Assembly (NCBI GenBank): GCA_049651785.1
Contig: JBASCT010000025.1
Coordinates: 5,563-69,562 of the forward strand
DNA from: Minisyncoccia bacterium
GTDB lineage: Bacteria; Patescibacteriota; Minisyncoccia; Phycocordibacterales; Zambryskibacteraceae
DNA: 64,000 nucleotides
Direction: 5' to 3'
In this document: positions 4,447 through 39,305 of the stretch, in pieces
Position numbering within the stretch: position 1 is the stretch's first letter
Layout: the number at the start of each line of letters is the position of its first letter
The notes under the pieces: generated by a model
Databases searched by the model: none
What the model saw: the letters and a program-made list of their open reading frames with translations, nothing else
What the model was told of the DNA's origin: nothing
Made by a program: the position numbers and the translations under genes

Positions 4447-5199
4447 ATGAAGCCACTTTCGGACAAAGAGCACCAGAAGGCCTATAGCGACGCCATAGCG
4501 GAAGCGCGCCTGAAAGGTTCCGACACCTTCCAAGGCTGGTTCGACAAAACCGGAAGTGCCGCCGAAGCTCGTGTGCGCGGACACTGGGATTTCGCCTTCC
4601 ACATTCTTAAAAAAAGCGTTTATAAGCACCTGAGTGCTCCGCACGAGAAGACGGCGCTAGAAATCGGCTACGGTGGAGGAAGAATCTTGGGTGCCGCAAG
4701 TAGTTTCTTCAAGCACGTAGTCGGAGTCGATATACATGGAGAGCAGGATGCCGTCAAAGAATTTTTATCGGCACAGGGGAAAAAGAATTTCACCCTCCTT
4801 CGCACCAAGGGGGACACGCTGGAGGTCGGAAGCGAGAGTATCGACTTCGTCTACTCATTCATCGTTCTTCAGCACCTGCCAAGATTTGAGACGCTTGAAA
4901 ATTATGTGAAGGAGGTAGCGCGAGTTTTGAAGAAAGATTGCCTAGCCCAGCTCTATTTCGGGAGACTCCCCGGGCACAACCCGAGTCAGTGGTTTCAATA
5001 TCTCTTCAAAGGATATTGCGAAATCACTGACGCGAAAGTTAATTACCGCAGTCTCGCCGTCACTCCTTGGAGAATGAAAATGCTCTGTAGGAAATACGGC
5101 CTCTCTGTCCTCGAGTCGGGCCCGTCTTATAAGCAGATGCCTGACGGCTATCCCCTTCGCCGCGGCGGTCAGCACTATGTGACGGTTATCAAAACTTGA
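4447..5199 (+). CDS. Class I SAM-dependent methyltransferase, substrate unknown
   Basis: Motif I LEIGYGGGR, VVGVD, post-I acidic residue. No SD before the ATG. Confidence 0.65.
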   Translation: MKPLSDKEHQKAYSDAIAEARLKGSDTFQGWFDKTGSAAEARVRGHWDFAFHILKKSVYKHLSAPHEKTALEIGYGGGRILGAASSFFKHVVGVDIHGEQDAVKEFLSAQGKKNFTLLRTKGDTLEVGSESIDFVYSFIVLQHLPRFETLENYVKEVARVLKKDCLAQLYFGRLPGHNPSQWFQYLFKGYCEITDAKVNYRSLAVTPWRMKMLCRKYGLSVLESGPSYKQMPDGYPLRRGGQHYVTVIKT

Positions 5200-5254
5200 C
5201 GAATCAAATCAGGTGATTAGAGTAAGAGAAAGGTTTGCTCCACAAGGAGAAGTT

Positions 5255-5473
5255 ATGTACATAGGACTCGAGAGAGACTCAAGGGTGAAGGGGGTCGTGA
5301 CTCACGGCGTTCTCAACGGTCGCCCTCTCTGCAAGTTCACCGACCGACTCACTTCCGACTGGGAGATGGGGCACAAGCCCGTACCCTATTTCCGCACTGA
5401 GAACATCAACTGCGTCATCTGCAAGAGAATGGCGAAGGAAATTGATCCACTTGACCTCCATGAGTACCCATAG
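5255..5473 (+). CDS. Hypothetical small protein, 72 aa, Cys-containing
   Basis: ATG with AAGGAG 5 nt upstream. No homolog recognised. Confidence 0.45.
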   Translation: MYIGLERDSRVKGVVTHGVLNGRPLCKFTDRLTSDWEMGHKPVPYFRTENINCVICKRMAKEIDPLDLHEYP

Positions 5474-5481
5474 TGCTCAAA

Positions 5482-35208: not shown

Positions 35209-36105
35209 TTAGAGCGCTTTCTCGGCTTCGATGAATTCATCGAGGCCGCCCTGGAGCACTTTCTCGACATCCCGAATTTCCACATCGGTGCGATGGTCCT
35301 TTACCATCTTGTAAGGGTGAAGAACATAGGAGCGAATTTGGTTCCCCCATTCTATCTGAGTGGTCTTCGAGATATACATGCCTTTTTCTTTCGCCTTGCG
35401 TTCATCCTCTAACTTTCTGTAGAGCTTAGCTTCCAAGAGACGCAGGGCTTTCTCTCTGTTCTGGGCCTGCGAGCGCTCGGACTCGACATGCGCCGAAAGA
35501 TTAGTCGGAAGGTGGACGAGGCGCACCGCCGTCTCGCGTTTATTGACATTCTGGCCGCCCGGGCCGCTTGAGCGCGAGTACTCGGTCTTTAGCTCCTCCG
35601 GCGGGATTTTAACCTCTTCCTGTTTTTCAAATTTCGGAATTACTTCCACCATGGAAAAAGAGGTGTGGCGAAGTGCTTTGGCATTAAAGGGCGAGATGCG
35701 CACCAAGCGGTGAACCCCGGATTCGTTTTTAAGCGTGCCATAGACACCTGCCTGCGCAGGCGGGCTTTTGCCGCTAATTTCCAAAGTGATATTGCGGTAC
35801 CCGCCGTGGTCATTTTCGTTTTTATGGATAACAGAGTAGCGCCACTTATTTTTTTCGAAGAATTTCATATACATCTCAAGGAGAATGCGGGAGAAATCCT
35901 CGGCGTCGTCGCCGCCCGCGCCGGAAAATATTGTCATAACGGCGTCGCCCGGGTCGAATTTCCCTAAGCCCGCTAGCTCTCCCTTGAGCGACTCGTACTC
36001 GCGAAGAGTCGCCTGGGCACGAGTTTTGTCCGCCCAAAATTCTGCAGAAGACATCTCTGTCTCAAGCTCTTCAATCTTTTTCTCTAAGTCTTTTTTATTA
36101 GACAT
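35209..36105 (-). CDS. prfB: Peptide chain release factor 2, uninterrupted with no programmed frameshift
   Basis: SPF and GGQ motifs present. Confidence 0.85.
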   Translation of the reverse strand: MSNKKDLEKKIEELETEMSSAEFWADKTRAQATLREYESLKGELAGLGKFDPGDAVMTIFSGAGGDDAEDFSRILLEMYMKFFEKNKWRYSVIHKNENDHGGYRNITLEISGKSPPAQAGVYGTLKNESGVHRLVRISPFNAKALRHTSFSMVEVIPKFEKQEEVKIPPEELKTEYSRSSGPGGQNVNKRETAVRLVHLPTNLSAHVESERSQAQNREKALRLLEAKLYRKLEDERKAKEKGMYISKTTQIEWGNQIRSYVLHPYKMVKDHRTDVEIRDVEKVLQGGLDEFIEAEKAL

Positions 36106-36106
36106 G

Positions 36107-36179
36107 AGCCGGAGGCGAGAGTCGAACTCGCGACTTACCCCTTACGAAGGGGTTACTCTACCAACTGAGTTACTCCGGC
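36107..36179 (-). tRNA. tRNA-Thr(CGU)
   Basis: GCCGGAG acceptor, anticodon loop TTCGTAA, T-loop TTCGACT. Confidence 0.85.
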
Positions 36180-37204: not shown

Positions 37205-37310
37205 AGATAAGGGAACGGAGCGCGCTTAGGTGACGCTCCAGGTTACTTTTAAAAATGTTCCCTTCATCCATTATAACTCTTTTGGAACCAAAAAAGTTGC
37301 ACGACTTCGG

Positions 37311-37566
37311 AGCCAAGATCGGGGATCGAACCCGAGACCTCATCCTTCGCTTACACCTCTTTTTCTTTTTATAAGAGGGCTAGACTGTATCTTCCACTCA
37401 CCGGCTAAGGTGAGTAGCTCTTGTCAGTCGTTCGGGCGCTTAGCGCCACGGTCTGAACCTGTTAGGGCCTTTAACCGTTATTCGAGATTCACTCAAAAAT
37501 TACTTTCTAAGTGGGCAGGATTAGCGATCCACCATGGATGTGCTCTACCAACTGAGCTATCTTGGC
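37311..37566 (-). tRNA. tRNA-Thr(GGU) split by a 183-nt intervening sequence between nucleotides 36 and 37
   Basis: Exon 1 is GCCAAGATAGCTCAGTTGGTAGAGCACATCCATGGT. Exon 2 is AAGGATGAGGTCTCGGGTTCGATCCCCGATCTTGGCT. Joined, they give a canonical Thr(GGU) cloverleaf. Confidence 0.7.
37348..37530 (-). other. Intervening sequence, candidate group I-type self-splicing intron
   Basis: The 5' exon ends in U and the intron ends in G. R-like GGTTCAGACC and S-like AAGATACAGTCTAG elements are present. Contains GCGCCCGAACGACTG, which is shared with the palindromic repeat family. Confidence 0.5.
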
Positions 37567-37590
37567 GCTTATTGGTACCACAAAATAATA

Positions 37591-38184
37591 TTACAATGAG
37601 GGAAAGTTTTCAATCAGACTATCAAACATTTTTTTAAGTTTAGTGTTATTAAAATAAACAGTTAAAACGCCATATTGATTTTTATTCCTATAACTTCCTG
37701 TCCCGCGAGACGGTGTAATTATAATCTTCTGAAATTGTGATTTTCTTACGCCAAGCTTATTCATCCAAAATCTCTGAGCTGCCACAGGAGAAATGTCAGA
37801 AAATATTTGGAGTCCAAATTTTAACTTATCTTTATCTATTCCATATATTTTATTTAAAAACGTCATATAGGCCATTATGAGTCTCGGATCAACATTGCCT
37901 AATCTTATTGAGTTTTTGTTTCTTTTGTTCCCTTCTCCCCAGAATAAGCCTATACCTAGCCCAAAAAGTTGCCATTCATCCTTAGTTTTTGGTGGTTTGA
38001 AAATAAAGGGATCGCCTTTTGGATTATATCTAAGGTATGTGGCGTCTGATATAGATCTTTTGGGGATTTTGTATTTAGAAATCCAATAATTTATTTTGTT
38101 TTGAGAAACTCCTGTTTTCCTAGCTATTTCTGCAACAGACAACTGTTTTTTTAAATACCATCTCCTTAGCTTACTTTCATTCAT
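37591..38184 (-). CDS. Putative freestanding homing endonuclease (LAGLIDADG-like GLFWGEGN motif) with an N-terminal HTH
   Basis: About 33% GC against about 50% for the genome. HTH LSVAEIARKTGVSQ. Immediately upstream of the intron-containing tRNA. Confidence 0.4.
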   Translation of the reverse strand: MNESKLRRWYLKKQLSVAEIARKTGVSQNKINYWISKYKIPKRSISDATYLRYNPKGDPFIFKPPKTKDEWQLFGLGIGLFWGEGNKRNKNSIRLGNVDPRLIMAYMTFLNKIYGIDKDKLKFGLQIFSDISPVAAQRFWMNKLGVRKSQFQKIIITPSRGTGSYRNKNQYGVLTVYFNNTKLKKMFDSLIENFPSL

Positions 38185-39043: not shown

Positions 39044-39095
39044 TATGACCGCAGTGCACTACAAAGTACCAGATTTTTTGGGCTTTATCAATTTG

Positions 39096-39166
39096 TGCCG
39101 GCAAATGGAATCGGACCATTGTTTGAGGCTTATGAGTCCTCCGTTCTACCATTGAACTATGCCGGC
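39096..39166 (-). tRNA. tRNA with CAU anticodon, elongator Met or Ile2 (lysidine), with an atypical T-loop
   Basis: GCCGGCA acceptor, loop CTCATAA, G1-C72 paired, T-loop TCCGATT (C55 in place of U), 31-39 A/G mismatch. Confidence 0.55.
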
Positions 39167-39231: not shown

Positions 39232-39305
39232 AGCGGGTTGGAGGAGTAGTACCTCGACAGGCTCATAACCTGTAGGCATCCGTGCAAATCGGATACCCGC
39301 AACCA
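39232..39305 (+). tRNA. Initiator-like tRNA-fMet(CAU)
   Basis: A1/A72 mismatch, A11:U24, U8, loop CTCATAA, CCA encoded, unusual T-loop TGCAAAT. Confidence 0.5.

Follow-up and report, generated by a model that had tools for sequence, protein, structure and literature searches.

The closest described relatives of the locus reported here come from a survey of group I introns in bacterial tRNA genes (n=333, 184-894 bp), Table 1 of which lists three tRNA-Thr(GGU) genes of Patescibacteria with introns between nucleotides 36 and 37, in a set of 95 complete genomes (Nakagawa et al. 2026, PMC13011429). The carriers are GCA_001029635.1, GCA_016700375.1 and GCA_030583745.1, and in its passage on these Thr introns the survey credits the term 'divergent group I introns' to Castelle et al. 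2018. [quoted passage not shown] In the same study, splicing was assayed for the Asn and Asp 35/36 introns only, while endonuclease genes were sought only within introns and mobility was judged limited. The 36/37 position, which the preliminary description of our locus took to be unusual, is in fact a classical site, used by the introns of tRNA-Arg(CCU) and tRNA-Ile2(CAU) (classes Arg.5Ug and Ile2.5Ug; Williams 2020, bioRxiv 10.1101/2020.01.27.920355; PMC13011429 section 8). The novelty implied by that description likewise gives way to the three Patescibacteria genes already in Table 1, and the intron studied here is one more instance of a published kind.

The window, by which we mean the whole stretch of 64,000 nucleotides that was analysed, is a bacterial chromosome segment carrying rpoB, trmD, prfB, gatA, ligA, a NUDIX gene and a gene for an ECF sigma factor. 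Its host belongs to the Patescibacteria, as seen both from this bacterial gene content and from the protein encoded upstream of the tRNA, which has an exact counterpart at NCBI, from a Minisyncoccia bacterium MAG; Minisyncoccia lies within Minisyncoccota, the Patescibacteria/CPR phylum. A phage origin was considered and rejected, as the phage collection gave no match and the neighbours are bacterial housekeeping genes. We are confident that a compact group I intron interrupts the tRNA-Thr(GGU) gene of this Patescibacteria (class Minisyncoccia) genome, and the parts of the gene are as follows:

37566-37311, minus strand: interrupted tRNA-Thr(GGU) gene, with a 73-nt mature body and CCA not encoded (ARAGORN on the joined exons)
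37531-37566, minus strand: 5' exon, tRNA nucleotides 1-36 (36 nt; ...CAUCC-AUGGU), ending in anticodon G34 G35 U36, whose U36 serves as U-1 at the 5' splice site
37530-37348, minus strand: group I intron of 183 nt (GGAUCGC...GUGUAAGCG), identified by the family covariance model R1 and covariation, with just 15.1 bits from RF00028
37347-37311, minus strand: 3' exon, tRNA nucleotides 37-73 (37 nt; AAGGAUG...GGCU)
37585-37613, minus strand: promoter-like site (TTGAAA-17-TATTAT) some 19 nt ahead of the 5' end of the tRNA, a consensus match alone (10/12 positions) and not evidence of function

Read on the minus strand from 37566 to 37311, the locus runs GCCAAGAUAGCUCAGUUGGUAGAGCACAUCCAUGGU, then 183 nt, then AAGGAUGAGGUCUCGGGUUCGAUCCCCGAUCUUGGCU. 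As first described, a 183-nt group I-like insert splits the gene at 36/37, and taking out 37348-37530 does restore tRNA-Thr(GGU): ARAGORN folds the joined exons into a textbook cloverleaf with anticodon loop AUGGUAA, variable loop AGGUC and T-loop UUCGAUC, each as had been claimed. The interrupted gene is missed by ARAGORN in default mode and by the Rfam tRNA model. With intron search switched on, ARAGORN does find a split gene, with boundaries 2 nt off, and reports it as tRNA-Arg(GCG) with an intron at 34/35.

Relatives were collected from representative genomes, one for each species, with a search pattern confined to exon letters (the D-arm, then seven free positions, then UGGU and a base other than A). 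At least 120 loci matched, and about 110 of the 120 listed share both the interruption and its site, which is far beyond chance; 99 of the listed interrupted loci were completely parsed and used for alignment. Their inserts measure 176-230 nt (median 192) and all end in G, and over the family as a whole sizes range from 170 to 230 nt. Members shorter than our 183 nt include two of 170 nt (L125 and L126), one of 173 nt (L121) and two of 176 nt (L012 and L044), so that this intron and the 170-176-nt members stand at or below the published minimum of 184 bp. The early remark that 183 nt is among the smallest sizes for a group I intron thus holds. Some introns begin with A or U in place of G; since the genome scan excluded introns starting with A, the family must be larger than counted. 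A second set of loci came from metagenome contigs and was retrieved via the neighbouring protein rather than via the intron; in these 80 loci, R1 identified 61 introns.

The structure of the window intron was derived from the family alignment, and its elements, all on the minus strand, are these:

37514-37533, minus strand: P1 hairpin, in which exon G34 G35 U36 pairs with the internal guide G15 C16 C17 (37516-37514), with a U-1•G15 wobble
37490-37513, minus strand: P2, a 10-bp stem with a GUAA tetraloop (37503-37500); 10/10 pairs change on both sides
37484-37486, minus strand: P3 5' strand CUC, followed by J3/4 GAAUA (37483-37479); it pairs with GAG at 37420-37418, with 99.7% of cells paired
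37448-37478, minus strand: P4 (ACGGU 37478-37474 with ACCGU 37452-37448), invariant in 99/99, enclosing a short P5 hairpin (37469-37456)
37435-37447, minus strand: P6 hairpin (GGCGC-UAA-GCGCC); 4/5 pairs change on both sides, with 95.8% of cells paired
37418-37434, minus strand: core 'R' segment, made of J6/7 CGAAC, P7 5' strand GACUG (37429-37425), J7/3 ACAA and P3 3' strand GAG; near-invariant in the family
37394-37417, minus strand: P8 hairpin of 9 bp, whose 7 basal pairs all change on both sides
37380-37393, minus strand: core 'S' segment, made of J8/7 AAGAUA and P7 3' strand CAGUC (37387-37383), then UAG; invariant in the family
37348-37380, minus strand: P9.0 (GC 37380-37379 with GC 37350-37349), P9 hairpin (37378-37356) and terminal omega G (37348)

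These helices succeed one another as is canonical for group I, P3 and P7 forming a pseudoknot and P4-P6 a stack, and the other hallmarks of the class are also in place: a U•G pair at the 5' splice site, the omega G, and the joining segments J6/7-P7-J7/3 and J8/7-P7'. The U at the end of the exon and the G at the end of the insert had been noticed at the outset, and both prove invariant in 99/99 sequences, as do the P1 U•G and its two G-C pairs; the U•G recurs in 51/52 sequences of the replicate set described below. The extension of P1 is formed by GGAU and AUCC with U14 bulged, and it too shows compensatory changes. Similarly, P3 is CCC/GGG in the family, and the U-A pair of the window (CUC/GAG) is a compensatory change. 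Loop L2 is a GNRA tetraloop in 98/99 sequences, and L9 is GNRA in many members. The P4-P6 domain is very reduced (P5 of 4 bp, of which 3 change on both sides, and P6 of 5 bp). In P9, 5/6 pairs are changed on both sides. P9.0 appears as GC/GC, AC/GU, GU/AC and AU/AU, with 24-26 of the 99 sequences changed on both sides, and because this covarying helix lies directly before the terminal G, it fixes the 3' splice site.

Two core elements had been proposed from the letters alone, and only one of them keeps its place. The S-like element AAGAUACAGUCUAG (37393-37380) is indeed J8/7 with the 3' strand of P7, whereas the R-like element GGTTCAGACC turns out to be J5/4 with the 3' strand of P4. As a P7 5' strand GGTTCAGACC had to be rejected, because it overlaps the invariant P4 3' strand and would place P7 before P6, far from the covariation-supported P3 3' strand. 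The true R-type segment is CGAACGACUGACAAG (37434-37420), and with GACUG/CAGUC as P7 the helix order is canonical. Compared by eye, the core R segment AACGACUGACAAG resembles the RF00028 consensus AAAGACUAAAcGg, and RF00028 itself, at a high posterior probability, places GAAGAUACAGUCUAG of the window on its J8/7-P7 consensus GAAGAUAUAGUCuaa. G102-C148, judged by its expected position, would be the guanosine-binding pair. J7/3 has just 4 nt (ACAA), leaving no P7.1 or P7.2, and the GNRA loops L2 and L9 resemble those of IC3. A P10 of 5 bp can be drawn in the window (AUCCU with AGGAU). As a conserved family pairing P10 was rejected, with 3 bp or more in 46/99 sequences and 0-1 bp in 47/99. The anticodon stem of the exons may align them in its place, by analogy with Anabaena as cited in PMC13011429 (its ref. 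29).

The fold is borne out by covariation across the 99 sequences: 90.1% of cells form standard pairs, compared with 31-44% when partners are slid by 1-3 columns, and the covariation score of 0.433 (0.146 in shuffles) was reached by 0/500 shuffles. Changes on both sides occur in 38/56 pairs, and P2, P3, P5, P6, P8, P9.0 and P9 all covary. Helices of the catalytic core are often invariant, and P4 and P7 are so here, hence uninformative for covariation. The replicate set of 52 distinct metagenome sequences, in an alignment fitted to the model, gave 91.8% paired and a covariation score of 0.516 compared with 0.179.

The covariance-model search called for by the preliminary description had a split outcome, negative for the Rfam group I model and positive for our own. 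R1, built from 98 family sequences with the window left out, matches 37341-37535 on the minus strand at 193.8 bits (E = 5e-57) over model positions 1-205/205; it matches nothing else in the window, which thus holds no second intron copy. RF00028 gives the window 15.1 bits (E = 0.22 in a 501-nt search), below its gathering threshold of 50, with just J8/7-P7 aligned convincingly. That threshold was reached by 0/18 relatives, and a relaxed scan matched just 1/20, at 24.4 bits. Under the refuting condition set in the preliminary description, this score would speak against the intron. We nonetheless rejected RF00028 as a decisive test, since it fails for the entire family and cannot refute the group I reading; its failure is the model's known insensitivity to this intron family rather than an absent fold.

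How such an intron would leave its transcript can be outlined from the model. The pre-tRNA would be transcribed with the intron, which would fold into P1-P9, with the GNRA loops L2 and, in many members, L9 likely clamping the small core. The last exon nucleotides, G34-G35-U36, would pair with the internal guide GCC and form the U36•G wobble, and exogenous guanosine would cleave after U36. The terminal G (37348), placed by the 2-bp P9.0, would then enter the guanosine site of P7, and U36 would be joined to A37 to give the anticodon loop AUGGUAA. Our data establish where exons and intron meet, the fold (through covariation), the place of the intron in a large family and the occurrence of intronless alleles; catalysis and autonomous splicing are inferred. 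A protein helper could be needed, given the very reduced P4-P6 domain.

Nearly all carriers among the listed scan loci are Patescibacteria MAGs. One member of the family lies on a 300-kb contig of the Niastella populi isolate, a cultured member of the Bacteroidota (L027:5227-5419, NZ_LWBP01000002.1), which looks like genuine presence across phyla. Other members carry the labels of Gammaproteobacteria MAGs (L035, L046, L096 and L117) or of a Bdellovibrionales MAG (L048). As the intron sequence of L048 is that of L077, which is labelled Saccharibacteria, some of these labels are probably due to mis-binning. Another contig (L004) has two matches to the exon-1 pattern 259 nt apart (5195-5222 and 5454-5481), suggesting that a second interrupted tRNA-Thr(GGU) lies in tandem and is truncated where the contig stops. 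The complete Wolfebacteria genome CP011209.1 (L025) is also a member and may be one of the three published carriers.

Intron presence varies among related lineages. In 15 of the loci retrieved via the neighbouring protein, synteny places an intronless tRNA-Thr(GGU) exactly where the others have the interrupted gene; a rough tree of the protein scatters the intronless loci over 7 or more separate places. These uninterrupted genes read ...UGGUAA..., which confirms the splice junction independently, and they are 66-85% identical to the spliced sequence of the window. A cluster of them encodes the 3' CCA (L180, L185, L187, L190, L196, L198 and L200); the window gene (GGCU-CCG, 37308-37311) does not. 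Recent horizontal transfer among the protein-anchored loci was rejected, with no pair combining an intron identity above 85% with a protein identity below 55%. Intron identity rises weakly with protein identity (Mantel rho = 0.18, p = 0.002), in keeping with an intron and a neighbouring protein that were inherited together, mostly by vertical descent.

The neighbouring protein is encoded by the following gene:

37591-38184, minus strand: 197-aa ORF with an N-terminal helix-turn-helix (HTH) and a LAGLIDADG-fold domain, ending 25 nt upstream of the tRNA (AlphaFold2 model, pLDDT 85)

Its family is unannotated, and the NCBI name is 'helix-turn-helix transcriptional regulator'. The predicted structure shows the alpha/beta fold of LAGLIDADG proteins, in which the motif helix closes with an acidic residue. 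The protein has 710 homologues, and its family is marked by an invariant GLxWGEG. A Pfam search matched HTH families only, even at E <= 10, with LAGLIDADG models unmatched, and a sequence search of the PDB with this protein found nothing. In 31 of the 94 genome loci anchored on the intron, tblastn places a homologue immediately upstream of the interrupted tRNA and in the same orientation. Conversely, the 80 metagenome loci anchored on the protein comprise 61 with the intron, 15 intronless and 4 too short to tell, and in 76/76 informative ones tRNA-Thr(GGU) lies directly downstream of the protein gene. As the protein adjoins tRNA-Thr(GGU) both with and without the intron, its link is with the tRNA gene and not strictly with the intron; a strict link to the intron was rejected, given the 15 intronless loci that carry the protein and the 63/94 intron loci without its gene upstream. 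The protein may act as a homing endonuclease encoded on its own, assist in splicing or have become a domesticated regulator.

This pairing raises the idea that the intron and the upstream gene form a two-part module, in which the protein would be either a homing endonuclease acting at tRNA-Thr(GGU), with the intron protecting the site or hitch-hiking, or a trans-acting maturase. The candidate endonuclease does have an invariant glutamate of catalytic type. Nevertheless, we consider such a module unlikely.

A related alternative, which we hold to be distinctly improbable, is that the intron, though of group I descent, has lost autonomous splicing and depends on a protein, for instance on the LAGLIDADG-fold protein as its maturase. 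LAGLIDADG maturases are known for organellar group I introns, and such a dependence would suit the minimal P4-P6 domain, the conserved LAGLIDADG-fold protein encoded directly upstream, and the intron present at about 80% of the protein-anchored loci. The same survey of neighbourhoods speaks against it, however, as most intron-bearing genome loci (the 63 above) do without such a gene and the protein also accompanies intronless tRNAs. Moreover, small self-splicing introns such as that of Azoarcus usually have GNRA loops L2 and L9 and a complete core, and this usual equipment is what the present family possesses.

The interrupted gene itself appears to be needed. Across eight Pfam-supported ORFs of the window, ACC and ACU account for 83/152 Thr codons, which calls for a tRNA-Thr(GGU), and the 64-kb window has no other; the interrupted gene is thus probably the sole copy of the genome. 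The three published carriers have 2 tRNA-Thr genes by tRNAscan where 3 is usual (Table S2 of PMC13011429). The common ACC and ACU codons, the single copy in the 64 kb of genome seen and the published carriers being one tRNA-Thr short together make a decaying spare copy very unlikely. The same verdict, at most a slim chance, applies to a tRNA pseudogene disrupted by an unrelated insertion. Such a reading would explain why standard annotation tools leave the gene uncalled, yet both exons are intact, more than 170 loci retain this very interruption while their inserts show compensatory changes, and the window offers no substitute for reading its frequent ACY codons.

Two further features of the window may be recorded here. 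ARAGORN places one tRNA-Met(CAT) gene on each strand (39232-39305, plus strand, and 39095-39166, minus strand), with 66 nt between them, and at its gathering threshold the Rfam tRNA model reports just the one on the minus strand. The ORF for RF2 (prfB; 35209-36105, minus strand) has just 298 aa, and its relatives align from residue 18 on. The gene usually has a programmed +1 frameshift, and its N-terminal part may lie in another frame.

What remains is the register of the splice sites, and here several lines agree on 36/37. No other register gives an exon ending in U together with an insert ending in G, and the comparative data fix both splice sites. Moreover, G1-C72, C2-G71, U73 and U20 are identical to those of the tRNA-Thr(CGU) of the window (36106-36179), and Arg identity requires A20, where this tRNA has U. 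A gene for tRNA-Arg(GCG) with splice sites shifted by 2 nt and an intron at 34/35, which is what ARAGORN with intron search calls here and also miscalls in Table 1 of PMC13011429, is almost certainly wrong, since the exon would end in G instead of U, the invariant P1 U•G and the covarying P9.0 both indicate 36/37, position 20 and the acceptor-end nucleotides are of the Thr type, and the uninterrupted syntenic homologues are tRNA-Thr(GGU).

Overall, the compact group I intron in tRNA-Thr(GGU) is a correct rediscovery, in which a reading of the sequence alone caught a tRNA gene that escapes ARAGORN in default mode as well as the Rfam models for tRNA and for group I introns. Interrupted genes of this sort make CPR genomes seem to be without tRNA-Thr(GGU) and so distort estimates of completeness, and three published cases greatly understate how common the intron family is. 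At 170-230 nt, its members are candidate self-splicing ribozymes of group I that would be the smallest in nature. The LAGLIDADG-fold gene linked to the tRNA is the sole element here that may be new biology; should the maturase reading be true, it would encode a trans-acting helper for one of the smallest natural group I ribozymes (170-183 nt).

Among known systems, the neighbouring gene invites comparison with 'collaborative homing', in which the free-standing homing endonuclease F-CphI sits beside an ORF-less psbA intron in cyanophages. Both systems place an endonuclease-fold gene beside a gene carrying a group I intron with no ORF of its own. Unlike F-CphI, however, the 197-aa protein is 45-55% identical across many lineages and also adjoins intronless tRNA-Thr(GGU) (at the 15 loci), and its endonuclease role is a matter of predicted fold. 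As for the intron, that of Azoarcus measures about 205 nt. The IC3 introns of Azoarcus tRNA-Ile2(CAU) and Agrobacterium tRNA-Arg(CCU), as cited in PMC13011429 (Reinhold-Hurek and Shub 1992, its ref. 28), share with ours the insertion after the third anticodon nucleotide, U-1, the omega G, small size, GNRA-capped P2 and P9 and the lack of an internal ORF; the Thr intron differs in its tRNA host, in a core too divergent for RF00028 and in a shorter P4-P6 domain. The tRNA-Asn and tRNA-Asp 35/36 introns of Patescibacteria, reported as phylogenetically nearest, come from the same phylum, also interrupt the anticodon loop and self-splice in vitro, whereas they are inserted one nucleotide upstream, are detectable with RF00028, are longer and in some cases carry HNH endonuclease genes (PMC13011429). 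Finally, when likened by description to the published Patescibacteria Thr introns, the present one has the same tRNA, the same 36/37 site and the same phylum, contains no homing-endonuclease ORF and elicits the same behaviour from the tools (RF00028 misses it and ARAGORN reports Arg(GCG) 34/35), so that nothing substantive differs. To those three cases, our analysis adds at least about 110 in species representatives and 61 in metagenome contigs, together with a full P1-P9 model backed by covariation and members as short as 170 nt.
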